64,000 nt of DNA from Obrimoposthia wandeli (Eukaryota): NCBI GenBank assembly GCA_977020255.1, contig CDROCS010001137.1, forward strand, positions 248,001 through 312,000, given 5' to 3'. The notes below the pieces were generated by a model, which saw only the letters and a list, made by a program, of their open reading frames with translations, ran no database searches and was not told the origin of the DNA. Below are positions 17,621 to 54,041 of this stretch, one piece after another (positions within the stretch are counted from its first letter, which is position 1; each line of letters begins with the position of its first letter). The translations under genes and the position numbers were made by a program.

Positions 17621-17754
17621 GAGGCGGGGAGGTGGTGGATTTGACCAGATACATACACCTACTTGTTAGTAATATCATCTAAAATTGCCAACAGTGTCAA
17701 GAAACAAAAGTAAAGGTGGGTTGCATTAAAGCTCTGCTTCAAAACATACGTGTT

Positions 17755-33893: not shown

Positions 33894-33919
33894 TCGTCTA
33901 AATTGTATTCAAATAAAGG

Positions 33920-35830
33920 TATAACAGACATGAGTCTATGTACATGTTTAAACTTAAAATGTAGCTCTTATATCGACTCCAAGTCGACATATACTACAAA
34001 AAGTGGAGAAACGGACCTTGAGAAATCAGTGGATTTGCATCATAATTATTTTGGAAAAGTGAATAATGTAGTTGTGTTGCTTTTGAAATTACAGTGTAAT
34101 ATGATTACTAAATGCAAGTTCAGTTCTGAAACCAAACAAACATTTTGCGCACCATGCGCCTAATTTTATATATATTGTATTTCAAATTCAGTTTAAATGG
34201 TTTTTATCATTACTCTCTAGTATTAGTAAATTAATCACATGATTAATGTTACTTGGCTTAGTACGATAAATAAGACTTAAATCAATTTTTTTAATACTTT
34301 TTTACTCGAATCTACTTTTTCAGACTTTATTGAAAATCAGTCATTGAAATTTTATTGTCGTTCTTGAATTTAGGTTTATTACCTAGTCATATTTGTTCAT
34401 CAGTATAGATAAGATCATCGAGAAACCGTTTATATTACCCCTGTCTACAGGATGGGGAAGCAAAATCTGAAGAAGAAAACGTTAAACATTCTAAATATAC
34501 ATAATACGCATAAAATATACAAACTGTGGCAAAATGACACATAAAACTGAACGCGCTCATCAGCATGCATATATTATTATGTGTCCACCCTTTTTGTTAA
34601 TCATAATCTGTACACGCTTTCTAAATTCCGTACAGCTTTTGAGAATAAAGACCTCCGAAAATTTACTCCACTCCTCTTGGATGACTTTATTGAGGGAGTC
34701 AATATTAGGGTGATACGTTTTATTAGTCACAATCTATATGTTGCCAACCACAGCGAAATTCAGTGGGTTCAGATTGGGATTGGAGGAGGATCAGTAGTCT
34801 GATTCACAAAAATCTACGAAGTTGGGCCCACAGACTGCTGAATTTTCTTAGTCGTAAGAGAGCGATCGTCATGGCGGTTTGCAACGGCATCCAATGTGAA
34901 TACTTTCTCGTCAGATAAGATCCTCATCGTCGACCCGTGGATCTTAACATATGCGAGCACTTTGTTGCACCGTTCCATTCTCCTTTCTTTCATACGCTCA
35001 GTGAGAAAGTGGCTAGGGTCCCAGTGTACGAATGGAGACCCAATACTTCATGCACAGTTCTTTTGATGGTGCTAGGATTTACTTCTAGTTATGCAGCTAT
35101 TTTATCATGGATGTAATTGCATCTTTCTCAATCCCAGCTTTTAAATTATTTACAAACGTCGAATTGCATTTTTGTTGCTGCTAAACCTACCAGACTTTCT
35201 GTGCACTATTACCCAAATTCAGAGCATACGCTGAATAAATCGTCTGAAATGCGACTTCAACTGTGTTGCAGATATTTATAGGATTAATTAATGTGTGGAG
35301 TAAATATTATTTGTCTTTTGTCTTTTGTCTTTCTGGGCACACATTAATCTAATATTTTACTAAAACAATTTAAAATAGTTACCTAAGATGTCAAAAAATA
35401 TTTTGAATGTATTGCAAATTTAAACAAATGCCTGGTTATTAAGGAATTAAAGTTTTAAATTTATTCCAGATTTTGATTGCTTATATCTTCGTAATGTAAA
35501 GCTGCCAAAACGGAATATACAAAACAATTCTCCTCATTTTTACAAGCATTAATAGTTGATCTTAAAAATAATGGTGTTTTTAAATACGATGTGCCACTAA
35601 TAGTCGATAGTTGAATAAATTTAAATAATATTTGCAATATTTTAAATACAGACCATTTGAAACTCGATTCGCTATATATTTTTATTTTATTATTTAGAAC
35701 AGCCGTTCTACTAGAAACAAAATTATGATCGAAAATATTAACCTTACAACTAATGTGCCATGACTTACAATTACCTCCATTGTCAATGAATACTGTTTCT
35801 ACACCATACTGAATTTTTCACTCCAAAAGC
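33920..35830 (-). pseudogene. pPolB: N-terminal half of pPolB from an older, divergent Polinton, split by a mariner
   Basis: KSWHISCKVNIFD; SGTSYLKTP...CFVYSVLAALH; KYKRFLDDL; INLLILE; WCAKCLFGFRTELAFSNH; FVVYVDLES, matching in order the motifs of the ORF at 41698. Confidence 0.8.
34560..35330 (-). mobile_element. Internally deleted mariner-type (DD37D/maT-like) transposon
   Basis: HFLTERMKERRMERC; LSDEKVFTLD; SPxLNPLxFAV; NIDSLNKVIQEEW; KGGHI. Confidence 0.8.
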
Positions 35831-37091
35831 TTAAAATCGTTCAACTAATTTAGATAGTTTTTCATTATTTATGTTTAAGTTTTGTATGGTTTTTCAATAG
35901 TAGGTTCTTCAATAGGCTCAACAATAATAAGGTCAATATTAGTCAAGTAAATAGACTCAAACGTAATAATAGGTCCATTTAAAATTGACTTGGAAAAGCT
36001 ATCACATAGACCCGGAAACTCATTATCATTGTCAACAATCAATGAATCAATGAAATTTAAAGTATTTGGGATTAATTCAGGTTTACAACTACCCAAATCG
36101 TTATTTATTTGTCTTTACAAACAGTCTTTTTACGAGTAAACATAGTTAAATGGGTTTTATTTCAATTATAAAAATCAGAATAAGTCAAAGATATGTAACT
36201 TATCTTAAAACGGACAAATGAAACGTGACTTATATCCATAATATTTCTCTGATATAGTTTGGCAAGAAGAATTTTATACACCACCATTTGTAGAATAAGA
36301 ATAGCTGCTACATAAACCATTACAACCTCTACCGCGGACATCAAAAGTCCGAGGAAAGACATGAATTACGGAACCATCTTCTAAAACATCGTCTATAATG
36401 CATTTAGATCAAAGACAATACCATTTTGGTTAAAGTAAAGGTTAGTTGACTTGAAAATGGTATGAATTTTCATAACCAAGTCCCTAATTTTGCGTTTAAA
36501 GCTTGTAATAAATTCCTCGCTATGACCTAATGGCGTCGTGTAAAACGGATTTTAAGTCATTGACCCGTTTTTATTTATGACGGAAAATTTTCCGTGTTTA
36601 CCATTTAATTTCAATTGTCTCAAGTCGATTGAATCAACATTTCGTTTGAATTATCTAAAATATTGCTTGAAGGGTCTATCATTTATATCACGGTTTTTAA
36701 TAGATCTGGCAGCTATCACAATTTTCTTAGAGTAGGTGGATGTGTCCGATCTAATCCACACCCCTCCCCCCACTGTCCTTTAAAACCGAGCATGTGTGTG
36801 GAGTGAAATTTCGTGCATGTGTGTGGATTGAAATTTTCTACCCACCCCAAAACTCATAAAAACTAATTTACCCCATATAACACCCTTTAAAATTGAAAAT
36901 CTCATAGGGCTCCCAAAAAAGTGAGGAAGGTCCTGAGAGGCCGTCTGGTGGCGAGCAATACATATGCAGAGTCGCGAAAAAATTTTCCTTGTAAGAATTT
37001 ATATTCATACATATATGTACAGGGTCGCAAATTTTTTTAAAAATCATCAACTACATAAATTGGAAATGATTTCAACATTTTCATTTTATTC

Positions 37092-37265
37092 GGATGAGTT
37101 ATCGTTGAGTCATAGGATGAGCCATCGATGACTCATAGAATGAATCATCAATACCTTAAATGATCTTTGACCTCATGATAACCTTAAATTACCTTGACCT
37201 AATGATGACCATAAATGACCTTGACCTAATGAGGTCATGACCTTAACTTGACCTTTAATGACCTC
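37092..37265 (+). promoter_or_regulatory. Subterminal motif cluster: 5 phased TGASTCA-like sites and about 8 TGACCT half-sites
   Basis: TGAGTTA 37095, TGAGTCA 37106, TGAGCCA 37118, TGACTCA 37129, TGAATCA 37141; TGACCTTGACC and AGGTCATGACCT at ~37165-37265; function inferred only. Confidence 0.45.
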
Positions 37266-37601
37266 TGGAAAAACATGTACGATCAAGAAAATATTAGTAT
37301 TTTAAATCCAAATATATACATGTATTCAAACATCAACAAAAATTAAGAAAATTCTATAAATTATTTAAATAATACGTTCTCATTGGACGTTGAACTTAAG
37401 CAACAAAAACTTAAGAAAATAATACTATTCGCATTCAAACGTAGTTAAAAAATTGATAAAAGCCTATGGATTTTTCAAATAAATTATTTGAATAACCCGC
37501 TTTCATTGGACGACAAAAGAGGGCTAGTCTGTTGTTTTTTGTATAAGGAGATCTCTTTTCATTATTTTTCATTTATCAAAATCAAGAATCAATAATCAAG
37601 A

Positions 37602-39462
37602 ATGCCTATTTTCAACAACGTTGACCTAGACGAAGAGATGGAGGTTCAACTATATGGGGATCTCTCTCCAGTACAAAAGCGAACGCCACCACAGCGAACG
37701 CCATACATTGACTTACTTAGTCAAGACTCGTCGGTGGTGAGCGAAGGAGACGAAGGAGAAGCAGCAGCAAGAGCGGAGCTGTTAAAAGAAGAAGCACCAT
37801 TGGCCAGCTCAACTCCAAGAGAAGAACCAATGAGCGTGAGATGTGGGGTACAGAGATCCCAATATATCGACCTGACTAGTCAGAATTCGATTGAGAATTG
37901 AGAAGACTGTACTCCCAGGCAGAACACAAAACCCACTCGTCCAGCAACTTCAGCAGTAGCAGCAAGGAGATCCAATATCTTCGAGAATTTTGAGGCGGCA
38001 ATCAAACGACCCTGGAAATTGATTCCACTGTCTGGGCCGGAGATAGTACTCGCACCAGACTCAGATGAGTAGCTATTCACCGATGACATTCCGTCGGATG
38101 GTGAAGAGGACTTGACTCCATTCATCGATGAATGAATACAGCCAAGTATCGGAGCCCCAGGAGTCAACGATTCAATGGTGGCAGAATTAGACGAGGACGA
38201 GTGGCGCCTATTCACCGATGATTGGGATGGTCTCACTCCCTCTGCAACACCAACTCCGATAGCCGACAATACGGTGCCTAATCCGTTCAGAAGGCCACAA
38301 TCTCCGATACGTCCTGTTAGGAGAATAAAGGCGACAAATGAGGTTAGTCTATTAATTTATTTAAAATGTTTTTTAATTTCATTTTTAGAAACTTCAATTG
38401 GATTTGGCACCGTCAGTGACCACAGCGGAGAGGCTGATTGAACTGCAGTACTTGGCGAGTCAATGTAGCCAGGATAATCCCAGGAGTGAGCACCGATACC
38501 TACCGACTCCGGATAAATTTGAGGTAAATTATTATAAATTAGTTAATAATTTTAATTATTCACATAGGAAGCCGAATTGGTAGAGAAAATTTTGGAGGAG
38601 GCAACTCTCAGACTACCCATCGATAGGAAACAAGCAGTGGTTAAGAAACCTCGACGCCATCGAATCAAAACCCACACGGTCCATCGGAAGAAGGCCAAGT
38701 TGGCGAAACAGGCTAACCTGCTCGTCATTGAGGTAAATTATTTATATATTTAAATTTCATTGATGTTTTTTGTTGCAGGAACCAATACAATTAACTGAGG
38801 AGAGATGGTGCAAAATTTCTTCTTTTTCGCAGGAACCCGTCCGGATAACTGAGGAGACTTGGGGAGAAATTACTTATTTTCCCAAGAAACGGGCGAAGCG
38901 AGCAGAGTTGAAGAAGACGAGGAGCTCGAGAAAATATAGCACCTCAATTGGCCATTATTCTGAGGCGGTGATTGGACAGCAGGAGATTCTCCCATCTCCA
39001 GTGGACGACGGTCTAATTCTATACGAGAGGATCCCAGTCTCACCGATCGAGATTAGTCTGCCATCAAGTCAACGACGCCTGCAGGAGACATCACCGGCTT
39101 CTCCTCGTCCAACAACCAGCCAGAACATAAAGAGGGCCTGGAATGAAGCTGGATTGGACGAATTCCTGGCGGAACTGGATACACCGGCAATGCTTCCAGA
39201 TTCGCGAAGGCAACAGGATGCCGTCTCACGCCAGCTTCAGCGTGAGAAGGAGGAGAAACAGAAGAAAGCTCCGCGGAAGAGAAAGGCTACTGCTTCTATG
39301 TCAGGGCCATCAACATTGGCTGCACCTCCCCCCAAAACGTTGCAACAACTATTGCCAAAACCTGTGGGAAGGACAATTGCTGCAAAACAACCGGTGAAGC
39401 CGAAAAATACCGGGCCGGCCAAAGAAGAAGGATCCAGTACCGCTTTCTCCAATAATACTTAG
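37602..39462 (+). pseudogene. Spliced Polinton accessory gene, ~574-aa disordered acidic/Pro-rich then basic protein
   Basis: Exons 37602-38342, 38389-38523, 38568-38732 and 38779-39462 joined by GT-AG introns of 46, 44 and 46 nt (all phase 0, GAG|GT); three in-frame stops at apparent Trp codons in exon 1. Confidence 0.75.
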
Positions 39463-39982
39463 TCGGAGGGATTTCGATGAGGATGATCCCAATGAAGACT
39501 TTGTAAAGATTTTTAAGAATATAATTTATAAAAATTAATTTCAAGTGTTTTCTTTTTAATATTTATTTAAATACCATCTTTAAGTTTATTAAAATATCAA
39601 GATGAAAAAAATAGTTAATTTATTCGACTGTTTTTGGATTAATAAGGAATCATTTAAATTTTTTTAGATTTAAATATAAATGCAATGATTAGTTCTAGAT
39701 TTATTAAACTTTCATTTGATACATAAAAATATATCATTTAATTGCCTGTGATTGGATTAAAAATATCTTAAATTTATATATATAGGTTCAAATGTAATTT
39801 AATTTCTAAATATTTAGGCATGTTTACATTTAATATAATTTATTTTAATATTCATAGGAGAATTGACAATATATACCAATCTTAACATGAAAGACTGAGT
39901 ACTTTGTTATTTTAATAAATTTTTGATTAATGATTTTTTTATTAGTTATAAACAAAGGGATTTGCTACAAATTTGGGTAATT

Positions 39983-40467
39983 ATGCAGGAATATATCATA
40001 GATTTTGAGGCTTACGTTAACAAAAATGATGATTATATTATAAAAGAATTATGTATTATGGATGTATGTGACGTTTTTTCATCCTTTGCATTTCATATTT
40101 CAAATATATATCCCGTTTAAAAGGTTAGATTATAAGAAAAAATTTACTAATTTATATCTAACTAAATATTTCCATTTATTAAAATGGAAAGAAGGACATA
40201 AGGCTTTTTGTGAAATATGTATTTTCAATACAATAAAATCTAATTTTGATATAGAAAATGGATTTTTTATGTTTTAGATGAAATGGATGGCAAAAGTATA
40301 AGACTTTAAAAAAATATTTTCCCAAATTGAGGTTGAATACTTTAAATATTTCATGTAATCATCTATTAAAAATTCCACGAAATATTTTCTGTCCATATCA
40401 TAGTCATGGTGACCATTGCGCATATAAAAAATGTTTAAGTCTATCTTATTATTTGACATGTAGATAA
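39983..40467 (+). pseudogene. DEDD-like nuclease-fold protein of Polinton (frameshifted)
   Basis: IIDFEAY...IIKELC; LHFIF...FHLLKW.EG; C-terminal CPYHSHGDHCAYK. Confidence 0.55.
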
Positions 40468-40704
40468 ACAATTCTTCTAATTGGAGAAATACATTATTTA
40501 AAAATTCGATTTTTCATAGAATTACAAATAAGCCTTTTAATTGGAGGAATAAAAATAATATTATCAACCAATAACAGATAAACAATCCTTCTCAGTGGAG
40601 GAATAAATTCAATTTTTTAATCCAATTGGAAAAGAGCATGTGTGCATAAATTTTAGTATATAAGCAAACACTTTCTTCATTTAAATCCCCGACAATTTGA
40701 AATA

Positions 40705-43700
40705 ATGCCTATGGTAAGAATCTATATTTATTATTTCCTTATTAATATTTATTATTTCAGATTACTTGTATCCTGTTTCCAGCCTATTGTGGTGCTTCGG
40801 CGTTATCACCTATAACCTATTGTGGTGTTTCACGGCCAACAACAAGAAGAGGGATATCGTCCAATTGGTGCGCGATTCGCAGGCCGCTCGAGCTCCACCT
40901 CCATTTACAGTGGCGGTCAGTCTACCAGTTTATGGTCCTGCCATTGGTCCTTCTCTCCCGGCTCCTGATTCTGCTACTGCCCCATCCACTCAAATGTCTA
41001 ACAATGAGTGGATGAACGACATCTCCGAGGAAGATTTTGAGGAGTTGGCACGAGCAACCCAATTCTCAAACAATGACTGGATGCGAAATATCACCCAGTC
41101 AGATTTCGAGATAGAGCAGCCTCAGTGGAGCGATAACTCATGGTTGGAGACCATCGAGGAATCCGATTTCGTCGAGTCAACGGTCGACAGCTGGATGGAT
41201 TCCATCAATGAAGAAGACTTCATTCCAGTTCAACTTGGATTGCCTTCATTAGGTATTTTTTATTATTATTTTTAAATTATATATTTTATTTTTTATTATA
41301 TATATTTTATTTTTATTTTTTATTCAGGAAATACCGTTATACAATCGTCCTCTGCTACAACAGATATGCCTCCATCATCGCGAGTGCCTACATCGATGTT
41401 AGCACGCCTAAGAGGTAATAATTTTTAAAAATATATTTATTTTTTAATATATTTATTTCAGCAGCACTAACCTCTACAACATCCGCTTCTTCATCGGCAA
41501 GGTCAGCTTCAAATGCAGCCTCTACAACTACCACTGTCTCACCAACATCGGCAGCACCTGCTACAGTAGCCCCTTCAACACCAGCTACGATTGCCTCAAC
41601 ATCGGCAGCATCACCAATAGCAGCACCTTCAACCTCAGCTGCGATTGTCTCAACTATTAATATAAATAGTTGTCTTCCCGTTCAATTAGGGGGAGATTTG
41701 TCAGCGACAAACGGAAGAAAGAGGCGAGGCCAATTTCTTAATAAGGTCCCACCCAAAAAACGTAGAGAAAACGGTGCTACTATAGAGTATCACCTAAATA
41801 ATAAATATGTTATAGTTAAGGTGCCATTAGGAAATGAAATTTTATTAAACGTAGGTGTAGATTCAAATATTGAAAATCTTTTAAAATCAGAAGTGACTAA
41901 ATTAGGACAGGCTAAGGTTCAATTTTGCGCAACAGTGCAGTTTAAAAATGTCAATGAGGAAACTAAAACTTGGGTAATTTCACATAAAGCAACTGTTTTC
42001 TATGATAATTTTGTAACTGAAATTGGAAGAAACCTGGATGAAAAAATTGCTAATTATAGCGAGTTAAGTAGTGGATGGACTCTAGTTAGAATTCACGATG
42101 TTAGCTTTGTTCTAACAAAGTTCACTGACATGATATATCTTTCGGGGAGTTCATACATTCCTTCACCTAGATCTCTTCAACTTTCACGTTCCATTGTTAA
42201 CGTACAAAACAGTGATAACCTTTGCTTTCTGTATAGCGTGTTGGCCATCCTCAAAAGGGGTGTAATTACTGAGCATAGAGAGCGTGTCAGTAAATATACC
42301 CATTTTTTAAATGAATTGCAGTATCATGGAATACATTTTCCTGTTAAATTAACTGCGATATCAAGATTTGAACATCTTAATAACTTGAGTATTAATGTAT
42401 TCAAATATAATACTGATATCCCAGTTAATGTAACAGATGAAGAAATATTTAAAAATCCTTTTGTAGATGTAATTGATAGGAGCAAAAATGAGGGGACTCA
42501 GGTCAACTTAATTTTGCTCGAACAGAATAATAAATTCCATTATGCTGCAATTCCCAGTTTAGATCGTCTTCTAAATTTAGATAATGGAGCCTTACCGGTT
42601 AGGATAAGGTGTAAGTGGTGTCATAGATGTTTGCATGGATTCCGATCCGAGCTCTCTTACAGCAAACATCTGACATTATGTTCACTGAATCCTGATGACA
42701 ATACGCTATATAGCATGCCTAAGGATAAGGATTTAAAATTCAGGGATTGGGCAAAATGCATACCCGTGGAATTCAGGGTGTATGCAGATTTTGAGTCAAT
42801 TTTAGCATTGCACGACCAGTATGAGAGTATTCACCTACCGGCTTCGGCAGGACTACTATTCTTAGGCCCCAATATTACCCAGTATCATAAATTTTCCGGT
42901 CCAAATTGTATTTTAGATTTTATTTTAAAATTAGAGGAATTAGGAACAACAATTGTCAAACCGTGGTATGATCTCAATGCTCATCAAGCAATGATCATGA
43001 CAGGCATAGACTGGGTTAATTTTAATTCTTGTAGATTATGTTATTTGTGTGGAACCCAGTCTAAGTTAGTCAGAGATCACGATCATGTTACGGGGCGATA
43101 CTTGGGAGCGGCGTGCAACCTCTGTAACCTTGGCCGTCGTTTCCCTAAAAAACCACGAATTCTCATCGTGTTTCATAACCTCAAAGGATATGATTTGCAT
43201 CATATACTTAAATACGCGTTGGGTACATTAAGCTCTTGGGAAATTTCATGTATACCTCAAACTTCAGAGAAATATTTATCTTTAACTGCATATACTGAAT
43301 TCTGCAGTTTAAGATTCATAGATTCTCTGCAGTTTTTGAGTGGTTCTTTAAAAAAGTTAACGGCATCTTTAAATGCATGGCCAATTACACAGTCAGTGTT
43401 CCAAGCTTCGGTTAACGATAAGGAGATTTTTCCGTATAAATTTCGAAAACATTTGCAGATTTAGAAAATACAACTGAAATCCCACCAATAACTGAATTTG
43501 AGGGTGTAAGTCTTCAAGACTATAATGAAGCCCGTACATTTTGGGCGAATAATTGTCGAAATCTTTTAGAATATATGCTTTATCATATGAAGTTAGACAT
43601 TTATCTTTTAGCTGATCTTTTTGAGTCCTTTCGTGTAAAATCTTTAGCAGAAGATGTGCTAGATCTCATGCATTTCTTTAGTTTACCTGGTCTTTTATGG

Positions 43701-45040
43701 GCAACAGCAATAAAAACTCTTAAAATTAATATCGAGTTACTGAAAGATCCCGCGATGTATCAAATGTATGATTATGGTATACGCGGTGGAATGAATTTTT
43801 TCAATAAACATCATGTTGTCAAAAATCAATCCACGGAGATTCTGTACATCGATATTAATAATTTGTATGGGTGGGCGCTTACTCAACCTCTACCTCATGC
43901 CAACTTTAAGTGGGTTTATGATGTTGATCAGTTGATACAGTTTCATCCGACGTCGGCTATTTGGTTGAGGTGGACATAAAAATCCCTCCCAATGTGCATG
44001 ATAAATTAGATGATCTTCCAGTAGCGCCTGTTCATCAATGCCCACCTAATTCAAAGGTTAAGAAATTATTGTTAACCCATGAAGACAAGTTGAATTATGT
44101 TGTGCATAGGCGGCTTCTTCAATTCTACTTAAAGTTGGGAGAGAAAGTTACTCGAATTCATCGTGCTACAAGCTTCAGTCAAAACTTTGTGTTTAAAGAC
44201 TATATTGAGAAGAATTCAAGAAAACGTAATTGGGCCACTAGCAAATTCGATCGAGATTTTTACAAGTTAAAAAGTAATAGTCTCTTTGGAAAAACTGTAG
44301 AGGACTTGCGGAAACGTATTTGCCTACGGTTTTGCAATGATGAGCGTAAACTAATAACATATACTAGCAAGTACAACTTCAAGCGTAGTTTTACAATTGC
44401 AGAAGACTTGGTAGCAGTGTTATTAGGAAAACAGAGTATTTGTCTCGATCGACTGAGTTATATAGGTCAAACGGTTTAAGACATTTCTAAACTCAGAATG
44501 TATGAGCTTCAATACATAGAATTGGAGAAATACCGACAAGAATTCAATTGTGAGATCAAAATCGCGGCAGGGGACACTGACTCTTTCTTTTTAGAATGTA
44601 AAAATGTTAGTTTAAATAATCAATTATTACCAGCAATGTTTAGGGACAACTTACTAGATACCCATAAATATCCTGCTAACCATCCTCTACACTCTATGAG
44701 TTTAAAGGACATTATCGGGAAATTTAAGGATGAAAGCGAGGGACAGGTTTTGTATGATGATTGTATTTTCCTACGCCCTAAATGCTACAGTTTACATGCA
44801 TCTAATAATACATGTTCAATGAGAGCAAAGGGTGTGGGAAGAAACAATCTTACACATGAGGCCTACTGGAAGGTTTATGATACTGGGTGTATTGAAAGCG
44901 TTGAGCAAACTAGATTTATTTCAAGAGCCCATCAACTGTATTCCCATAAATCAACCAAAATCAACTTGAGTATTAATGACGACAAGCACTTTTGGGTAGA
45001 AAAGAACGCTAGCCTGGCTTATGGACACTTCCGAATTTGA
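40705..45040 (+). pseudogene. pPolB: Protein-primed DNA polymerase B with spliced N-terminal extension (frameshifted)
   Basis: ExoI YADFES, endonuclease VII-like RDHDHVTG..CNLCN, ExoII FHNLKGYD, PolA YIDINNLYG, PolB KLKSNSLFGK, PolC AGDTDS; introns 40714-40760, 41253-41327 and 41415-41461, the last two splicing in frame into ORF 41698; frameshifts or stops at ~43464, ~43960 and 44479. Confidence 0.93.
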
Positions 45041-45303
45041 ACGGTTTTCATTTTTTGATTATTTTAGTTTAGTTTTTTTAAATTTTAGATCCCTATGGCA
45101 CCTTGACTCTAACTTTTTGTTATTTCAATACATTTTTTAAGATGGACCTTGTTTTTGTTGACAGATCTCATTGTGATGTTGTTTTTAATAAATGTATTAA
45201 ATAAAATTTGTCTTATGTCTTTTATTATTTTACCTTATATTTTTTAGGGATTTAAAAAAGTAATTCAAAATAAAACATTAAAAATATTTATTTTTATAAC
45301 ACA

Positions 45304-45678
45304 CTAATCTTTTTGCAACGATAACCATAAAATACATAAATGTCCACAGTTTCTCGTCGCAGGATCCTGATATTGTATCTTGTTGTAAAATACTCTTCTT
45401 CGTCCTTTTTGAATGGTTGAAACAAGTTTGTGTGGATAATACATTGCAAGTGGATCAAATACATGTATTGTCCACTCTCTAACATAAATAGCTATTCAAT
45501 GTTCTCCTGGTAAATTCGAAGTATGAGTATTGATAATGTAACCTCCAGATGGAAAAAATGGGATCATATAAATTGGATAAACTCCATTGAATTTATCACC
45601 CAGGACCTTCTCTGCTGATTCTTGTACTGAACTAAATAAAAATTAACAAATATAAATTTAAAAAATGTCTTACTTCAT
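45304..45678 (-). pseudogene. Adenain-like cysteine protease with a 5-nt first exon
   Basis: ATG AA | 42-nt intron 45673-45632 | ...INTHTSNLPGEH*IAIY...FDPL...YNKIQYQD...NCGHLC; catalytic His/Asp/Gln/Cys pattern; the stop is a Trp codon in the copy at 33640. Confidence 0.9.
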
Positions 45679-45679
45679 T

Positions 45680-46910
45680 CTATAATATGACAGTTCTGTT
45701 TTTATTGATTTGTATTTACGAATCAAACACTACGTAAATAAGTACCGTAGTAGGATGTGTTAAAGCTGCATTGAACTTAATTTCTATTCGTAAATTTTCA
45801 TCCTTTGGTAGTTGGCATTGGTTTATATCAAAGTCTGGTGCCAAAACAAATGTGAAGAATGGGCAGCTGCTTTTAAAGTCAGTGAAAGAAATACCATTGT
45901 TTATATTTTTATCTAGTTGGCCCAAATTCCGAATAATAGATTGCGTATAAGCCAAAGCATAAGCGTTACCTTCGAAATCTGTTTTATATGTTTCACGATA
46001 ATCAGTATTTCTTGAAAGTGTCACTGAACATACATTAAGATTGTCAAATTGAGTTGCATCTGTCGTATAATTTCCTAGAAACTTTGTAATTTATTTGAAA
46101 ATAAATTAAAATGAATTTCGGTAATCTTACATCACCAAAAATTTGATCCTTATTAAAAGCTTGTGTACCTGTACCTAAAGAATAGGATATAAGTTTAGTT
46201 TCTCTAATAGGATAACAAGCATTGTTTTTTTCCATTCCTATATTATGTGCCATTAAAACTGATTGCTCGGTTTTAACTCTTCGGACATATAATTTTGCAT
46301 CCAAAATATCAAGTCTAGATTTTAGAACGTCTGTGCTTATCAAAGAAAAATTCCATTTATTACGTTTCAAACGAAGATGTACATTAACACCGGGAATTAA
46401 ATATTTCGGTTGTTCAAAGAAATTCAATCTCAAAGACCCACACATTTCGTAAGCTTTAGAACCCGCAATCCATTTTTTGCGAGTTGCAACCGTTTTATCA
46501 TAACCAATGGTTGCCAAATTAGTATTTTGAGTATCAGTACTATAATTCAAAAGACTTTCAATCAAAGCTTTATGAGCATAGGAAGAATTTCCATCTTCAA
46601 TTTTGACATTATTAAGAGTAACAATGGCATCACTAAATAAAGAATTAAAGAGATAATTTACAGGTGTTACATCTGCATTTTCATCTAAATTAGTACCATC
46701 CCGATTTAATACTTTTATTTGAACATAAAGCAAAGTATCATTCAAATCTAAATACTCGCTATTGGAACCATTAATATAAAATTCTAAATCGGTTAAAGTG
46801 GTTCCTGAAACTGAGTTAACTAGAAATATTTCTTCAAAGGAAGCATTATCTACAACTACTTGTGGAAGCGGTTTATCAAAAAGACACATTTCAGTTTTGG
46901 CGCAACTCAT
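45680..46910 (-). pseudogene. Polinton major capsid protein (double jelly roll)
   Basis: LEFYI...YLDLNDTLLYVQIKV; PVNYLFNSLFSD; FFEQPKYLIPGV.V.LRLKR; LYVRRV; LRIEIKFN; frameshift near 46050 and a stop at 45716. Confidence 0.88.
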
Positions 46911-47284
46911 TTTGCAAATATTGTTCCTTCAACTTTCTTACGTTTGTTTATATTGATTTTTTGCTTCTTTTTACTTTTAAATCCACTACCGCCTTGGCTT
47001 TTATTTGATTTACGTTTTCTAATCAAATTAGCAACTTCAGGTAAAACATTATCAAGTTCATCAAGCCCATGCTTCTTAAAAGTTGGTATTAGTTTATTGT
47101 CCTTAGATGAAAGGTAATCCTTTCCTAATTTTGATATAAATCGCCCGAGTCTCTTTAAAAGAGGAAAGGCAAATCTGCTTAATGTTCTAAGCCAGCCAGA
47201 TCCATATTGTTTACCAACAAAATATGGTAATTCTCCACCTTGTTGGCTTTGACTATAAGCTTCAATTATTGGTGGATTCGCCAT
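46907..47284 (-). CDS. Small basic Polinton virion core or membrane-active protein candidate with QxGG motifs
   Basis: Intact 125-aa ORF; SQQGG|EL, KQYGSG|WLRTLSRFAFPLLKRLG amphipathic helix, K-rich tail with SQGG. Confidence 0.65.
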   Translation of the reverse strand: MANPPIIEAYSQSQQGGELPYFVGKQYGSGWLRTLSRFAFPLLKRLGRFISKLGKDYLSSKDNKLIPTFKKHGLDELDNVLPEVANLIRKRKSNKSQGGSGFKSKKKQKININKRKKVEGTIFAK

Positions 47285-48317
47285 TTTGTTTTCTTAAATG
47301 TATTGTTAAACTTGTCTTGGCCCCGTATGTGAAATCTATTAGTTGTCCGGAATCATCTCTAATATTTACTTCAATATTGTTTATAGAAAAGAGAGCAACT
47401 GGAAGATACATTGGTTGATCTATACGCATACCGACAACGTCCCCATCTTTAGTTTCATTTTGAGAAATCCATATTGTTCTCAAAAGTGGAACTCGTTGTC
47501 CTACAAGTGTTGATTCTATTAAATTAGTATAAATATATAAATTATTAACAACATTTAAAGGTTTTGCCTTATTTTTAGCTTTTATGGTTTTTATTGTATG
47601 GGTTTCAAAGGTATTTCTATTTTAACCAAGGTTTTTAGTGAGTTTATCATCAATGGAAACCCGTTTTATGCTGCTATTTACCGTAAACGTTAATTTATCA
47701 TTTAATGTTACACATTTATCCAAATATTCACTACATTCCTTCTGTATTAATTTACATAAATCCACTTCCCTTTCTATTTTATAATATTTTGAAAGCTTTT
47801 TCAGTTCCACTACAGTCTTTGGTCTCGTTTCAAGTAACAACACTTTTGCTACTCTACCAGGAACATTTCTAACCGATTTAGGTGAGACTATATCCCATTT
47901 ATTACGAGCTACTGTTTGTTCACTATAAAAACTGAATAGAAGAGCTTCTTTTTTAGATTCAAAGTTAATTTTAATAACTTGAAGATATTTTAATCGATTT
48001 TTAAATCTGACTTTGTTATTTTCAAATATTACTTTCACTTCTTTATCTATACAATTGTAATAGAATTGTCCTTTACTATCAAACCCGATCACAACTTCAG
48101 TTGTTTTTTCATGATCAACTTCTTTTGTAAACGTAATATGTGAGTTTTTTCTAATAGTAATTGGAGAATAATAAAAAGAAAATTATGTTAAAGCCGCTTC
48201 CCATTCTCCTTGGAGATTTATAGGATTTTTCCAATCGATAATAAAGCTACTTGCGTAATTATCTGGTTGAGTCTTCGGACATCCGTTACTAGGTAAAACC
48301 ATATACATAGATTTCAT
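47262..48317 (-). pseudogene. Polinton minor capsid (penton-like) protein
   Basis: N-terminal MVLPSNGCPKTQPDNYASSF...LQGEWEAAL; C-terminal LYIYTNLIE..LVG..VPLLR...YLPV...INNIEVNIRD..G.LIDF...LTIHLR; in-frame stops. Confidence 0.85.
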
Positions 48318-49397
48318 ATTATATTAGATGCTGATATCCAAGTTGGATATGAATAACCATGCCATTTAACATAGTATTGTTTATGTTTACCGGCACCCTT
48401 AGATTTTAATATTTTTTGAATACAGAAAACGCTAGGTTTATTTGATATTACTTGTAGTTCTTGCTCGTAAAATTTACCGCGAACGATATTATTGTCAGCA
48501 TCTTTAATAGTACACATTATTGGATTACTTTTTTGATCAATTTTACTTATACAAAATATTTCATCGCTCCAATTCTGATCAAAGTTTTTAATAAATGGAG
48601 TAGAGCTAATATTCGAAATTCGAACATATTCGATTTTCTTATATTTAGCTTTTTAATATTTTTTTTTATTCCTGTCCATCCAAATATCCATAGAGTTTTC
48701 ATTAGTAACATCAACAGGTCTCATTCCCTTGAGACCTCTATGTTCAGAGGGATTATATGCATGTATTATTTTAGGTAAAACTTGGATACATTTATTATTT
48801 CCTTCTTTTGTGAAATACCTTTTTATTCGATCTCTTAAAGTACGATTAAATCTTTCTACTACTGCTGCTTTGTACTGTGAAAACACAGATTAGTGATTTA
48901 TATTATTTTGTTTAAATAATGATTGAACTTGCTTATTATAAAATTATTTTCCTAAATCAGTTTTCACATTTTGTGGAATGTCCTCTTTTAATATTTCTTT
49001 AATGGCTTCAAGCATAGCTATTGAAGACTTTGCTTTAACTGGAATTACACGAGCAAACCTGCTAAATACATCAATACATGTTAAAATATATCGATATCCC
49101 TTATTAATGGAAGAATATGGGATCATCTCCAACAAATCCATTTGCCATAAATTATTAGGACCGCTGGTTTTATAAGCTCTAGTTGGAAACCTTCTTCTCA
49201 TCGGCTTGTTCAGACTGTAGGCTAACTGGTTGCTCAGCCATTTATGCGTTTTCTTGTAATTTTGTTTTGTTCTTTTTGCCAATTTTGAAACTCTGGTGTA
49301 GCCAATTGGATCTTTTGGATTGAAGCATATCTTCTCTATTACAACAATTTGAATAGAAAGAAAATTTAAATTTAGGTAAAGAAGGGTTAGCACCCAT
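48314..49397 (-). pseudogene. Polinton DDE integrase with chromodomain-like C-terminus
   Basis: LWQMDL, YILTCIDVFSRF, KTDLGK*FYN, KAAVVERFNRTL, YYVKWHGY; possible ATG G micro-exon plus 58-nt intron. Confidence 0.92.
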
Positions 49398-49425
49398 ATC
49401 TTTAGCTGATTTTATAAATAATTGT

Positions 49426-50597
49426 TTATGAATGTGTCGCAGCTATAATTATACTGATAATTGAAGCAACAACTGGAATAACAGCCTCTAGGAAACCACC
49501 ATTCTGTTTAAGAATAATATTTCGTTTCCTTTTTTTACTTTTTACATTAGCAATATCTAGAAGAATTTTTCTATATTTCTTTAATTCATTTTTCCGTTTT
49601 CCAACCTTTACTCGACCCAAAACTATATTATACAAAACTTCCAATAAATCAACTACAACAAAGGATGGAAATGTTTTAAGAATAATCATTCTCTTATGAG
49701 AAGAGGCTTTGACTAAAGCAGGGTTTCTCAACGGGGGCCCTGGGGCCCCCTGGGGGGCCACACAATTTGCCAGGGGGGCCACACGAGCCAAACAACAAAA
49801 AAAAAATTAACACCCCTGTTTTCACTGGGTTAAACACTTCGATGGCTGCACACGTGTGCCACAAATAAATGTTTGACATGGAATAAAAACAGAGTATAGA
49901 CTTCTAGATACATATGGACGCGACGCGTCAACTTATTGTGTGGGCGTACCAGCCCAATGAGGGCCGACGGTAAAACATCATAATATGCCTTAGCAAAAAT
50001 ATCATCGCGCTACAAAAGTTTGTGTGGCGGATGTGGCATGTGCATAATCATCATCCTGAGTAATCTATGGACTAAAATCAGTAATCGTGTTGTGTCTCAG
50101 CGTGTGAAGAGAAGAGTGTCACACTTCATGTGTACATGCCCAAAATACGCTGCCATTGTAAAATGCTACCTACCTAACTCACAAACGTGCACTTGTGTTT
50201 GTTTTGAATGAGTCAGTGGTTGATTTCTTTCTTCTTGTTTGTCATTCACCATATCTGAATGTACACACATAGGACCTTGTTTTTCTAATTGTCTTTTTGC
50301 TCACGTTACCCTTGTAAACAATTGCTCCAGATTTCACTACACTTGTTGGCAAACGCCAAGCGCAAGGGTCACACTAACATTTTGTAAATATAGTTTTCTC
50401 ATTGATTATCTTTTTGAATGTTTCCATGACAGAATAGTATAATTGAAAACTATACGTATACGATGTAATCTTTTTGTCCATAGTAGAGGGGGGCCACAGC
50501 AATTTGCTGCAAACTAAAGGAGGCCGTGGTGAAAAAAGGTTGAGAAACCCTGGACTAAAGCTTTAAAATAGGGTATGCTTCTTTGTATTTTCTTCAT
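49426..50597 (-). pseudogene. Basic QxGG protein (adenovirus protein X/VII-like candidate), disrupted by a MITE
   Basis: MKKIQRSIPYFKALV [MITE] KASSHKRMIILKTFP...KQNGG|FLEAVIPVVASIIS; homologs at 16990-17330 and 55879-56211. Confidence 0.75.
49719..50552. mobile_element. hAT (Buster/Charlie-type) non-autonomous element, 834 bp
   Basis: TIR CAGGGTTTCTCAAC...GTTGAGAAACCCTG; perfect 8-bp TSD GACTAAAG with central TA. Confidence 0.95.
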
Positions 50598-50773
50598 TTT
50601 AATAAAAAAGGTTCAATTTAAATATTGTTTATATTCGAAGCCATTTAAGTTTTTTTTTATTTCTAACTACAGATTTGAATAATTTTTTCACTTTTATTTT
50701 CTTAATGATTTTTTTTTATTCCTTAGGCTTTGCTTTACGTTTTACTATCAACTTTGTAAAAGGCATTGTAAAT

Positions 50774-51421
50774 TTATTTTTTATAATTGTTCTCTATTTG
50801 TTTATAAACAGTTACTCCCTTAGAATTAAATATGTCTGTTAAAACACGTAAATTATCTGGGCAAGCTTGTGTAAAGTCAATAAATATATACCCATGTGCT
50901 TGTTTAGCAGCATCATGGAATGAATCAACTAGAAAGTTATTATTTTGAGGAAATGCCTGTCTGGCCACAAAATCAACAACTGTTTGATCTCTAGAATTTT
51001 TAAATAAAACTAAGTAATGTACATTAAGATTTCTTGTTCAAAGATGACCTCCTTGGTGAAAAAGATTTTGAGTGATAAATATAACTGTTACTTCACGATG
51101 TCTTGCAATCTTTGTAAATAAATGATTAAAGTTTGATTCCTTGTTAGCTTCCTGATATAAATCATCAATTATTATTACATCTTCTTTTTTCGATCTTTCA
51201 CACCAATTTGCATCAAATCCTTCAATAAATTGTATTCCCTTCAACTTGCAAACTTCTGTTTTGGTTAATCCGCTTTCCCCTCCTCCACCATGATGACAAT
51301 AAATATTTTTGAAACTAGATTTGAAAAGAGATTCATTTTGCAACAATTTTCATACGAAATGTGTCTTTTCACTTCCACCGGGATCAACTATTTGAAATAC
51401 AGCATTATTATTTAGCTCCAT
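50774..51421 (-). pseudogene. A32/FtsK-like packaging ATPase
   Basis: Walker A decayed here to DPGGSEKT (GPSGSG in the copy at ~3930); Walker B IIIDD; RHREVTVIFITQNLF; GYIFIDF. Confidence 0.9.
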
Positions 51422-51458
51422 TGAATATACTCTTTCATTTTTAATATTGTTTATATTA

Positions 51459-51740
51459 TCATAGAAGTTTCCTTATTGAAATGTACAATGTTAGAGCTAT
51501 TGTAGATGAAATACAAAAATTAATTAATGAATATTTGGCTATAATTTTATTTATTTGTGTACGATTTCTAAATTCTCGAATAACGTATGAGCTAACCAAT
51601 ATTTCAATGTTATCTCTTGTTATATCATTATTTTTTAATTCTGATAAAATTTCTTTACCCATACTTTTTCCAGAAAATATTTCGTCGGCAAGACGATCCA
51701 CTTCATTGTCTCTATTTATAGTATTATTCATTTGAAACAA
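51459..51740 (-). CDS. Small Polinton ORF with C-terminal hydrophobic segment
   Basis: Intact 93-aa ORF; its 3' half is conserved in the copy at ~4000-4140. Confidence 0.55.
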   Translation of the reverse strand: MFQMNNTINRDNEVDRLADEIFSGKSMGKEILSELKNNDITRDNIEILVSSYVIREFRNRTQINKIIAKYSLINFCISSTIALTLYISIRKLL

Positions 51741-51759
51741 TAAGTTTAAACGGGTTTGT

Positions 51760-52324
51760 TTATAGAAAAGATAACAATATGTAATAAGATATATTTTCTA
51801 AAATCAAATCAACAATGTTTGGATAATCAAAATTTTTCAACCCCAATATCATAACTTTACCACTGGAAAATATATTTACACATAGCGGTTTAAACTTCAA
51901 ATAACTGAGAGCAGGAAATATTTCTGGTTCAAACATGCATTCTTCTTTCATTTTCTCTGCAGTTTTAAAATGATTTATCTGTTTCCCAAGATTAGCCGAA
52001 ATGGTGATTGATTGTATTGCAGTGATTCGAATTCCAAATGGTAAATTGAACCCAAGCATTGGTATTTTGCATCCCATAACACGACAATTTCCTAAAAGAA
52101 TTCAATATGAAAATTAAAAAAAACTAACCTGTAGGAAAAATAACAACTGTGAAATTGTCAAACTTTTCCACATATTGTCTCTGCTTCCATTCATTGAATG
52201 GTAAATACGAAACATCATCTTCTGTTCTTCTTTTATAATTTATATTTACGAGTTTCATTAGACTAAAATTGTATTCTATAAAATCTTCTTTATATATGTC
52301 TGAACCTGCTTTTTTATTGCACAT
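51760..52324 (-). CDS. TATA-binding protein (TBP)-like protein, 2 exons
   Basis: 37-nt intron 52128-52092 (ACA G|GTTAG...TTTTAG|GA) joins VVIFPTG-NCRVMGCK (repeat 1) to IQSITISANLG...FEPEIFPAL...VNIFSSGKVMILGLK (repeat 2). Confidence 0.8.
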
Positions 52325-52452
52325 TTCTTGTAATTATCTTCCAAACCTATTATAATTGGATGATATATTTCTTCCAATCAAATTTAGTCCAATCAAATTC
52401 AATGCTTTTGTTATATTAACCAATGAGATTCATGTTTTTTGTTAGAAATTAG

Positions 52453-52487
52453 TATAAAAGAATGCTCCATTGGAGGACAAATCACAG
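52453..52487 (+). promoter_or_regulatory. TATA box (TATAAAAG) with a downstream Inr-like TCACAGT, upstream of ORF 52491
   Basis: Canonical octamer at 52453-52460, about 30 nt before the putative initiator. Confidence 0.5.
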
Positions 52488-52490
52488 TAA

Positions 52491-52973
52491 ATGCATTCAT
52501 ATCAAAGACAAGTATCAACGATGGACGATAGTCAACGGGTATTAAGCGATGAGGAAGATATAGAAATGTTTGAAGAATCGGATAAGGATATGTATGAAGA
52601 AGTGAAACAATATTTCAAATACAAAGTCAGATTCTTGAAGAAGGCTCAACTGATTGCTTTTGTAAATCCTGTGACAATTGAAAGAAGAAAGTTCAGCTAC
52701 TATCTATCAAATATTCAAAAACCAGATTTTCAATATCTTAAACAGAAAGTTGAAAAGGCAGTTCCGAATTTTACTTTCAATAAGAACGAATTTTATATCC
52801 AAGGAACCGATGAAGCATTTCTAGATGATTATGGAAGATATGTTGATATTGATGCGTTTCCGAAAAACAAGCAATGGACTGTAACAATTCGACTTTATGG
52901 TTACAAGAAAGATGAAATGGGAACAAAGTTGCCTATGTGGAAAATTGAACGTGCTCATATTTCTATGTGTTAA
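52491..52973 (+). CDS. Polinton ORF, possible OB-fold ssDNA-binding protein
   Basis: Intact 160 aa; acidic N-terminus; C-terminal W.VTIRLYGY...PMWKI.RA. Confidence 0.55.
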   Translation: MHSYQRQVSTMDDSQRVLSDEEDIEMFEESDKDMYEEVKQYFKYKVRFLKKAQLIAFVNPVTIERRKFSYYLSNIQKPDFQYLKQKVEKAVPNFTFNKNEFYIQGTDEAFLDDYGRYVDIDAFPKNKQWTVTIRLYGYKKDEMGTKLPMWKIERAHISMC

Positions 52974-53108
52974 CTTTTGCGTGTAATAAATTGTAATCGG
53001 TTTTACTATGTTTCTTTTATTTAATAATCAGTTTTATTTTTTAAATATTTGTATCTTATATGTATTTTTTTATAAACATTGTTTTTTTAATCAGTTTCCT
53101 TATTTTAG

Positions 53109-53514
53109 AATGGATAAGAGATGTGTAGCAAATTTTTATTATCCAGAAAGATTTTCAAAGGGAAAACTATGTAATATATTAAAGAGGCATCAAATTATAC
53201 GAGTTATGAATCCTGTGAAAATATCAAAAGTGGAGAATAAATATCTCATCGAAATTTTAACAACATCTGATTTTGATCAATTAAAAAATATTTTGGGATT
53301 TTACATTCCTGATTATGTATATGAATGAAATTGATTCCAACTTGAAACTGATCCCAGTCTGGATTTTAAAGATGATCTAGGATATTTGATTGCTCTAATT
53401 CTAGATGAAGAACTATGGAATATCTCAATACGTCTCAATGGATATTTTGCTGATGACAGGAAAATGCAGCCTCTTTGGACTTTGAGTGAAGCCAATATGT
53501 TGTTTTATGTTTAA
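53109..53514 (+). pseudogene. Paralog of ORF 52491 (two in-frame stops)
   Basis: YVYE*N*FQLETDPSL reads YVYEGNYFHSESDPSL in the copy at ~4200; C-terminal WNISIRLNGY...PLWTL.EA. Confidence 0.6.
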
Positions 53515-54041
53515 TAAATGTTTTGAAAAATAATTTTGACTCGTATTTTGTTTTTTCTCCTCTAAATTATTTAGTGATCTAATTTTTCTCTCATAAATCT
53601 GAACTAAATATTTAACATGTAGTAATCTTTCTTAAAAATAGTAGTAATATATTATTTGAAATCTCGTCTGCAATAAGCCGCCGGGTCTAATATGGATTCC
53701 CGTGGTCTTCTCTAACCACTTTCAAGATAAAATTCAAAGTAAAATTTTAATTTTTTTGGGAGTGGGGGGGGGTACCCCCTCCCCATTCGTTACTTTTCAA
53801 TTTTTCAACAAAAAAAATTCTCCTACACACATACACAAAATTTCACTCCACACACATGCACGGTTTTAAAGGACAGTGGTAACCCCCCCTCCTATTCGTT
53901 GCTTCTTTTCAATTTTTTCCTACACACAAACACGAAATTTCACTCCACATACATGCACGAAATTTCACTCCACACACATGCACGGTTTTAAAGAACAGTT
54001 GGGGTGGAGGGTGTGGATTAGACCAGACACATCCACCTACT

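Follow-up and report, generated by a model that had tools for sequence, protein, structure and literature searches.

A decayed Polinton in Obrimoposthia wandeli with probable host-spliced introns and a TBP gene predicted to act on a shared upstream motif

The gene expression of Polintons, including the possibility of a viral early/late cycle, is an open question in the field. A 64,000-nt window of the Obrimoposthia wandeli genome (contig CDROCS010001137.1, 248,001–312,000; positions below are those of the window) contains a Polinton/Maverick element that makes the question testable, with a TBP as factor, the motif YATAAACA as site, and fixed splice junctions. Neither tiny introns in the protease and TBP genes nor an own TBP with a shared motif belongs to the textbook Polinton. 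Our main reading, with a probability of roughly 0.6, is that the window holds a decayed copy of an abundant Polinton whose introns are likely spliced by the host, and which encodes a short TBP, predicted to act on YATAAACA and likely to serve as a switch for the late genes (capsid, packaging and integrase).

A degraded copy of an abundant Polinton

The element spans 36731–54041, and its terminal inverted repeats and all Polinton core genes are recognisable (Table 1). The repeats match at 88% over 36731–36772/54000–54041 and at 93% over 36767–36836/53935–54004. A 6-bp target duplication (36725–36730 and 54042–54047, TCTTAG/TATTAG) is identical at 5/6 positions, and exact 6-bp pairs occur elsewhere (c027, c037, g086 and g089). 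The Polinton hallmarks are present: a protein-primed PolB (pPolB), which carries an endonuclease VII-like insert, an rve integrase, an A32-type packaging ATPase and an adenovirus-like protease. pPolB, the integrase with its chromodomain and TBP were identified by Pfam; the ATPase, the protease and the likely major capsid protein (MCP) were identified via intact relatives. Through these relatives, the ATPase matches PF04665 (E 1.3e-6; 74% to the ATPase of metagenome element L127) and the protease matches PF00770 (E 1.1e-7; 36% to an ORF of L130) and adenain structures (E 5e-5). Polintons typically have a double jelly-roll major and a single jelly-roll minor capsid protein; here the MCP was assigned by size, position and its large family, and its relatives show a weak match to the double jelly-roll PF21738 (E 0.039) and no PDB match by sequence. 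Pfam returned no match for the left accessory protein, which is acidic and then basic, for the ssDNA-binding (SSB) family, or for the MCP and protease pieces of the window.

Table 1. Features of the element, in window positions
Feature	Position	Strand	Remarks
Left terminal inverted repeat	36731..36836	+	begins AGTAGG
Tandem arrays of TGA(G/C)TCA and TGACCT words	37093..37264		upstream of first gene
Left accessory gene, four exons	37602..39462	+	exons 37602-38342, 38389-38523, 38568-38732, 38779-39462
Intron A1, 46 nt, phase 0	38343..38388	+	GT and AG in 11/11 copies, 44-46 nt
Intron A2, 44 nt, phase 0	38524..38567	+	38 or 44 nt in copies
Intron A3, 46 nt, phase 0	38733..38778	+	GT 10/11, AG 9/11 copies, 41-49 nt
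Conserved small gene	39983..40467	+	homologue of L130 161-aa ORF; in three frames here; YATAAACA 36 nt upstream
pPolB with spliced leader	40711..45040	+	PF03175 in three pieces; broken; leader: ATG exon, Cys/His-rich and acidic exon 40761-41252, exon 41328-41414
Intron P1, 47 nt	40714..40760	+	immediately 3' of ATG; GT and AG in 6/6 copies
Intron P2, 75 nt, phase 1	41253..41327	+	other copies: GT 4/4, AG 3/4, 64-118 nt
Intron P3, 47 nt, phase 1	41415..41461	+	GT 8/9 copies; acceptor parsed 5/9
Adenain-type maturation protease	45304..45678	-	exon 1 = ATG + 2 nt; broken
Protease intron, 42 nt, phase 2	45632..45673	-	after ATG+2; GT and AG in 17/17 copies
Major capsid protein gene	45680..46910	-	~410 aa in relatives; frameshift and stop; YATAAACA 42 nt upstream
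Conserved small basic gene preceding MCP	46907..47284	-	YATAAACA 101 nt upstream
Putative minor capsid protein gene	47286..48317	-	assigned by position and size alone
Retroviral-type integrase with chromodomain	48314..49397	-	PF00665 E 1.6e-7; without intron; YATAAACA 33 nt upstream
Small gene, weak adenovirus pX match	49426..50597	-	MITE-interrupted; YATAAACA 36 nt upstream
MITE, 834 bp	49719..50552		14-bp inverted ends, 8-bp target duplication; later insertion
A32-type packaging ATPase	50774..51421	-	YATAAACA 34 nt upstream
Small ORF	51459..51731	-	YATAAACA 33 nt upstream
TBP-like gene, two exons	51760..52258	-	exons 52258-52129, 52091-51760; both frames open
TBP intron, 37 nt, phase 1	52092..52128	-	within Gly of IF..G motif
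Predicted OB-fold SSB (T7 gp2.5/Enc34 type)	52521..52973	+	open frame
Paralogue of SSB gene	53110..53514	+	~29% identical; 1 stop
Right terminal inverted repeat	53935..54041	-	

The product of 52521–52973 is a predicted SSB, a function suggested by its modelled fold and its context. The model has a Z score of 7.7 (rmsd 3.2, 110 aligned residues; Foldseek probability 0.99, E 0.03), and its top four structure matches are gp2.5, Enc34, DUF2815 and CP312R (Z 6.7–7.7; the next match has 5.5). The predicted OB fold may relate this protein to the SSBs of T7 (gp2.5), Enc34 and ASFV (CP312R); identity is 9–12% and Z below 8. The acidic activator-like proteins of the earlier note stand only in part, the SSB-like protein being removed from their number; the acidic repeats at ~41000–41250 belong to the spliced pPolB leader.

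The element had been described as a complete, virion-competent Polinton with every core virus gene. All core genes are indeed recognisable, though broken, and completeness does not hold for the window copy, in which pPolB, the integrase, the ATPase, the protease and both capsid genes contain stops or frameshifts. Relative to its relatives, the MCP gene has one frameshift and two stops (one perhaps the natural end), the integrase three in-frame stops, the putative minor capsid gene three stops, the ATPase two stops and an altered Walker A, and the protease one stop within the aligned frame. Two frameshifts and one stop divide pPolB into four open frames, a deletion causes a frameshift in its leader, and exon 1 of the left accessory gene has three premature stops. 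The MITE, which is hAT-like, is missing from copies spanning the site. A candidate MCP intron at ~46075–46130 was discarded, because the segment aligns with the relatives' coding sequence, and a frameshift accounts for the break. Intact Mavericks as defined in PMC8097293 have core ORFs that are both intact and intronless; those of the window copy are neither. The Polinton/Maverick family to which this degraded copy belongs is very abundant. As regards variants among copies, counts are small for TBP exon 1 (4 N, 3 S) and for the N-terminal part of pPolB (7 N, 0 S), and the shared-variant ratio of the ATPase is 0.89.

The element TBP and the YATAAACA motif

The TBP homologue inferred previously is present and belongs to a wide Polinton-linked family. 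Its product matches Pfam PF00352 over the cut-off (E 4e-10), and a metagenome relative, P0003 (52% identical to the window TBP), has a predicted fold of the TBP saddle type (pLDDT 87, Foldseek E 4e-8). The gene is not an isolated insertion: it has at least 150 near-identical copies and recurs in five Polinton families of the genome and in metagenome Polintons. A first metagenome scan gave no matches, and IMG/VR scans with TBP returned 0 loci in one case and 1 distant locus in another. Shared variants of exon 2 have a dN/dS of ~0.13 (4 N, 8 S), versus 0.71 for single-copy variants. The element TBP is genuine and, on small variant counts, under purifying selection.

Like cellular TBP (PF00352), the element protein has a predicted saddle fold, three of the four wedging Phe and the E-P-E stirrup; unlike it, the N-lobe helices are predicted to be lost. 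In yeast TBP numbering, the equivalents of F116, F190 and F207 are kept in 42/44, 44/44 and 44/44 relatives, and those of stirrup residues E186 and E188 in 43/44 and 42/44. The F99-equivalent is variable, and the first strand does not align to host TBP. The N159-equivalent is Ser and the L205-equivalent Asn in 44/44 relatives, and the V122- and T124-equivalents are altered across the whole family. Of four intercalating Phe and an Asn pair, the family thus keeps three Phe, with Ser for N159.

The TATA-like boxes and motif arrays listed in the earlier note are present. The array words are AP-1-like (TGA(G/C)TCA) and nuclear-receptor-half-site-like (TGACCT); nine half-sites lie in the first 900 nt against a background of 0.48, with a patchy distribution across copies. 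A canonical-looking TATA lies ~40 nt upstream of the TBP-like gene. In 9/9 elements tested, the sense-strand motif YATAAACA lies ahead of the genes for capsid proteins, ATPase and integrase. Each cassette has 7–12 sense and 0–1 antisense occurrences versus ~1 expected, with 0/200 resamples in 9/9 elements, and the enrichment is found again in 6/6 copies of family F. The distance to the start codon is 33–42 nt in 6/9 measured cases, the remaining three being 68, 101 and 227 nt. Four presumed early genes of the window copy (left gene, pPolB, TBP and SSB) lack the motif. The early/late split is not fixed, because in family B YATAAACA precedes the SSB gene too.

In the proposed model, host Pol II would read the left gene, pPolB, TBP and SSB in the nucleus from ordinary TATA/CCAAT promoters, and these early transcripts would be spliced by the host. 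The element TBP, with its retained Phe and acidic stirrup, its family-wide altered DNA face and its missing N-lobe helices, would then recruit TFIIB and Pol II to YATAAACA, which it would prefer over TATAAAAG, and transcription would start ~25–30 nt behind the motif. As is established for the Polinton family, pPolB and SSB would replicate the linear genome and the integrase would insert it with a 6-bp duplication, while capsid proteins, ATPase and protease could package it.

An unlikely alternative is that the introns are real but the factor on YATAAACA belongs to the host (its TBP or a forkhead protein), the element TBP having another role, for instance as a competitor of host TBP or as a protein on the terminal repeats during replication. 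YATAAACA looks like a TATA box, TATAAACA may be a site for host TBP, and ATAAACA likewise matches a forkhead site; moreover, the TBP gene adjoins the SSB gene at many loci, which would fit a replication module. The motif and TBP are also inseparable, because every complete cassette examined carries TBP: IMG/VR scans with MCP and ATPase for a TBP-less control gave no relatives, and a family fetched as the control had TBP. Against this alternative, the family-wide changes lie on the DNA-facing strands of a TBP that keeps its stirrup, and each gene has a single YATAAACA, confined to one strand and placed where a core promoter would be, unlike an enhancer site.

It is very improbable that the window copy is complete and virion-competent and broadly reprogrammes host transcription via TBP and activators. 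All core genes are recognisable, and open MCP frames, at least 101 of them, occur in another family of this genome, but the breakage of every core gene refutes this for the window copy, single-copy variants are near neutral (ratio 0.7–1.1 in most genes), and a protein proposed as an activator is instead a predicted SSB. No observation suggests host genes as targets of the Pol II reprogramming proposed earlier, and the transcriptional role would be better confined to late genes of the element itself.

Probable short introns at fixed sites

All eight proposed GT-AG introns (37–75 nt) are supported by comparison of copies and relatives (Table 1). In the TBP intron, GT is retained in 35/36 and AG in 33/36 copies, yet 27/36 lengths are not multiples of 3. 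An intron at the identical TBP site is found in families W, C, D and F of this genome and in L127; the protease site is shared by families W, B, C, D and F (the five TBP-typed Polinton families of this genome), one further element and the metagenome element L123. The interiors of same-site introns are unrelated between families at ~50–60% protein identity. Intronless, colinear relatives exist for both sites: family B, P0001–P0005 and 28/29 metagenome loci for TBP, and L130 for the protease. Intron lengths vary freely and exon lengths preserve the frame. The only host intron measured has a length of 47 nt, and the host TBP gene has no intron at the element TBP site. From these patterns, the GT-AG segments in the protease, TBP, pPolB-leader and left genes are likely introns spliced by the host spliceosome.

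That they are AT-rich insertions or spacers, intron-like by chance in an AT-rich genome, is scarcely credible: a loose scan of the element does yield 47 candidates, but several patterns speak against it. Distant families have the segments at identical positions with interiors that are unrelated, intronless relatives are colinear, a protease without its first exon has no in-frame start, and GT/AG are retained despite length changes that are not multiples of 3. A possible ninth intron, in the integrase, was rejected; the stretch never begins with GT in the 15 other rows, is 57 nt long in 13 of them, and is coding DNA with stops that aligns in a single frame with intact integrase. Trees that did not include family F (MCP mostly unresolved; a quick TBP tree of 103 columns) did not polarise intron gain versus loss. 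Same-site introns across distant families would imply that the elements replicate via DNA yet depend on the nuclear spliceosome, and ORF-based annotation overlooks the protease start, the polymerase leader and one third of TBP.

Comparison with known systems

The element resembles animal Polintons/Mavericks (eupolintoviruses, adintoviruses; PMC8097293, PMC8502044, bioRxiv 10.1101/2022.07.12.499685) in its terminal inverted repeats, 6-bp duplication, length class of 15–20 kb and genes (pPolB, rve integrase, A32-type ATPase, adenain protease and probable capsid genes), and in those elements, as here, the majority of copies are degraded. According to the same sources, Mavericks have intronless core genes, with introns confined to nematode cargo genes, whereas the window element has probable introns in a core gene (the protease, at a site common across lineages) and in the pPolB leader. 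Spliceosomal introns also occur inside dinoflagellate polinton-like viruses, as transposon-derived introner insertions mostly no older than other host introns (PMC12166617); unlike introners, the introns described here have no sequence in common, and distant element families keep them at fixed positions. A TBP-like gene has already been marked in one polinton-like genome: the MELD virus map in the non-animal data-set section of PMC8502044 carries the label 'TBP', which the Fig. 5 legend gives without analysis, motif or intron. In the literature, no description was found of an animal-type Polinton combining TBP, SSB and a shared upstream motif.

In a wider and more tentative reading, at slightly under even odds, a widespread Polinton lineage would run an adenovirus-like, host-spliced nuclear programme in which a minimal TBP, having shed the helices for host regulation, reads YATAAACA via its changed DNA face. 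This would be a one-protein late switch independent of herpesviruses, and the protease intron would tie particle maturation to splicing. The protein could also serve as a naturally occurring model for TATA recognition by a minimal TBP whose DNA face has shifted.

A close parallel is found in the TBP mimics of beta- and gamma-herpesviruses (EBV BcRF1, KSHV ORF24, CMV UL87), which act on TATT late promoters (PMC4893493). Both systems have a virus-encoded TBP fold and a variant TATA box before structural genes, to be read by host Pol II. The herpesvirus vPIC is a six-protein complex around a large TBP mimic; no counterpart of the remaining five was recognised in the element, whose unassigned genes gave no Pfam match. 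Unlike the mimics, the element TBP is a bare 153-aa TBP core with clear sequence homology to cellular TBP, and its binding is predicted. By analogy, the best reading of this gene and its motif is an element-encoded late-promoter factor that would work like the herpesvirus vTBP-TATT system.

Identity, decay and family of the element

The TIR-bounded element spans 17.3 kb and is flanked by TCTTAG and TATTAG, with exact 6-bp duplications at other copies. By Pfam, TBP matches above the cut-off (E 4e-10), alongside pPolB in three pieces, an endonuclease VII-like insert, an rve integrase and a chromodomain; A32 and pX match weakly. The earlier note had counted all core virus genes as present; this stands for pPolB and integrase by Pfam and for ATPase and protease through intact metagenome relatives, but for the capsid genes the call is based on their size and position, on a protein family with 282 members and on a double jelly-roll (DJR) match that is weak. 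The element is a Polinton by every testable hallmark, bar intactness and intronless core genes.

Coordinates of features in the window and in metagenome loci
Feature	Position	Strand
Polinton element	36731-54041	
Left accessory gene	37602-39462	+
pPolB with leader	40711-45040	+
pPolB leader exon	40761-41252	+
Protease gene	45304-45678	-
Protease intron	45673-45632	-
MITE	49719-50552	
TBP-like gene	51760-52258	-
TBP intron	52128-52092	-
Predicted SSB gene (acidic ORF)	52521-52973	+
Further Polinton fragments	33004-35832; 17036-17663; 3830-4412; 55879-56217	
TIR tip with ATPase and pX-like remnants	17663	
TIR-like tip, then 8 TGACCT/AGGTCA words	7800-8700	
Perfect 62-bp inverted repeat, 1-nt spacer	30601-30725	
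RING-finger gene (PF13920), between TBP and ATPase	L127:1710-2171	
Tandem minor-capsid-like genes	L123:6417-7681	
MCP stop codon overlapped by protease ATG	L130:5488-5498	

Comparison with intact relatives contradicts the proposal that this copy is complete and virion-competent. Its MCP has two stops, one of which may be the natural end, and one frameshift; integrase and the minor capsid gene have three stops each, the ATPase an altered Walker A and two stops, and the protease, in the frame that aligns, one stop. Three frames are needed to read the small gene at 39983, pPolB is spread over four open frames, its leader exon measures 492 nt where the two closest rows have 619 nt, and exon 1 of the left gene has three stops. 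The MITE (834 bp) is missing from copies spanning that site, and near the left end some copies carry a further exon, a further intron and a small ORF, all missing here. Judged from its sequence, the window copy is dead.

The family is large. Every one of the 150 places scored against TBP exon 2, taken from 32,487 first-look candidates (a figure that does not give copy number), is 96-100% identical, so that TBP is not an independent insertion absent from other copies. Of these places, 20 were examined, and most are deleted or nested. Variants confined to one copy are close to neutral: with no region excluded, dN/dS is 0.7-1.1 in nine of the 13 regions and 0.4-0.6 in the others. Variants common to at least three copies, in small counts, are mostly silent, with dN/dS of 0.13 in TBP exon 2, 0.08 in MCP, 0.10 in the polymerase C-part and 0.11 in left gene exon 1; this does not hold for the ATPase (0.89), nor for the pPolB N-part (7 N, 0 S) or a small ORF at 51459 (4 N, 0 S).

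The host assembly (1.35 Gb, AT-rich, taken here to be an animal's) has a canonical TBP and at least one intron of 47 nt. Polintons are extremely dense on many of its contigs, where one often sits inside another. At least five TBP-bearing families have a terminal AGTAG word in common, and in one family at least 101 MCP frames are open. The window fragments include a polymerase-protease piece ~90% identical to 44840-45741 and a diverged polymerase piece.

Introns in copies and relatives

A loose scan returned 47 AT-rich GT-AG candidates within the element, and intron-like shape alone is thus little proof. Of 36 copies, 35 retain the GT and 33 the AG of the TBP intron, which is 34-40 nt long; 27 of the lengths are not multiples of three. 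Four further TBP-bearing Polinton families occur in the genome (B, C, D and F; TBP identity 50-58%): C, D and F have an intron of unrelated sequence in the same glycine codon, and B has none there and reads straight across. The host TBP has no intron at this site. From the 40 metagenome TBP loci that the search gave, 29 close ones (L111-L139) were compared: one has an intron here and 28 read through. This ratio is biased toward intronless genes, since the junction lies within one of the two search patterns. In the set of the 150 best library representatives, twelve start at profile position 48, the Met just behind the site, a start that further spliced copies could explain. As to gain or loss of the intron, the trees interleave intron-bearing with intronless TBPs, in weakly supported groups.

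Exon 1 of the protease consists solely of ATG and two bases, and its intron (40-44 nt) has GT and AG in 17/17 copies. The same layout recurs in B, C, D, F, one further element and metagenome locus L123; the protease of locus L130 is colinear without an intron. The left gene has three phase-0 introns of variable length, with an exon 1 of 717-741 nt (a multiple of three in all six rows with a start, open in three) and an exon 2 that measures 135 nt in each of the ten rows, out of 13, that could be parsed. The pPolB leader runs from ATG through an intron to a Cys/His-rich and acidic exon, whose length is 3n+1 in four of five other donor-bearing rows, and then to an 87-nt exon with a phase-1 join to the polymerase frame. 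For these six introns, three in each gene, the comparison covers the window's own family. Taken together, the GT-AG segments are very probably real introns; the eight proposed are upheld by copy comparison, at the TBP and protease sites also across families. A possible ninth, in integrase, was rejected, as comparison with other copies and relatives identifies the stretch as coding.

The TBP-like protein and its putative promoter motif

The joined exons encode 153 aa, matched by five database proteins at 51-53%, and a profile search gave 48 clusters with E < 1e-30. The claimed TBP homology is borne out by the Pfam match and by a relative, P0003, predicted (pLDDT 87) to fold as a TBP saddle whose C-terminal half holds its only two helices; cellular TBP has four. 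The suggested survey of co-occurrence with Polinton capsid genes found both in L123, L127 and L130, which also carry ATPase and integrase; L117, L118, L121, L122 and L131 have TBP plus at least ATPase. In the host genome, the loci L051 (G000:C238) and L053-L057 comprise two canonical-type TBP genes back to back within 2 kb and more diverged TBP-family genes on three other contigs.

Residue numbers are those of yeast TBP. Among 44 relatives (125-200 aa, from the first 53 proteins; first strand unaligned), equivalents of F116, F190, F207, E186 and E188 are kept in 42, 44, 44, 43 and 42, and that of F99 is not kept. Family-wide changes are N159 to Ser (44/44), L205 to Asn (44/44), V122 to Arg (42/44) and T124 to Met (44/44). 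The element TBP is predicted still to bend DNA and meet TFIIB and to read a different sequence, and it may lack a surface that host regulators use.

The acidic ORF beside TBP, a neighbour in many loci, is predicted to be a gp2.5/Enc34-type ssDNA-binding protein (pLDDT 89), which makes it likely a replication gene. The suggestion of acidic activator-like proteins is probably wrong for this ORF. Other acidic repeats belong to the pPolB leader exon: a finger-like Cys/His-rich part precedes 2-4 of them, which contain Trp and Phe and vary in number, in frame, among copies.

The expected number of YATAAACAA matches in the window is 4.85 and the observed number 18 (0/100 shuffles), with ten of these inside the element. 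Nine cassettes, all TBP-bearing (window, two B, one C, two D, L123, L127 and L130), each contain 7-12 sense and 0-1 antisense copies of YATAAACA against 0.9-1.6 expected (0/200 each), and family F has it at matching places in 6/6 copies. In the window copy it lies 33-42 nt before six starts (a small ORF, ATPase, the pX-like gene, integrase, MCP and the gene at 39983); for the minor capsid, small basic and protease genes the distances are 68, 101 and 227 nt, and one site also precedes the SSB paralogue. Many sites fall within the coding frame of the upstream gene. The 46.7 kb of the window outside the element, which also holds other Polinton fragments, has 11 matches. The left gene, pPolB, TBP and SSB instead have ordinary TATA-like boxes and CCAAT words, in line with the TATA boxes noted earlier. 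The element TBP is a reasonably probable candidate reader of YATAAACA; the comparison covers TBP-bearing elements. The whole model, in which the host splices the introns and the element TBP is predicted to switch late genes via YATAAACA, receives a probability of roughly 0.6.

In families B and D (L071-L106), as in L130, the MCP stop codon is overlapped by the protease ATG; in C and F the two genes lie apart, with YATAAACA 34-36 nt before protease. Each gene of the L123 tandem pair ends with YATAAACA 99 nt before the next start.

The first 900 nt of the left arm hold 9-11 TGACCT/AGGTCA words, putative nuclear-receptor sites, in the window copy and four others, against a background of 0.48. Other copies of the family have 0-4 and family B 1-2, and ends of another family have 7-27. 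These word arrays are real but patchy.

Comparison with known Polintons

In our literature search, no paper described a promoter motif together with a TBP in an animal Polinton, or Polinton core genes with conserved spliceosomal introns; such annotation could exist in Repbase entries, figures and supplements. In the portion of PMC8502044 consulted, TBP is mentioned only in a figure legend.
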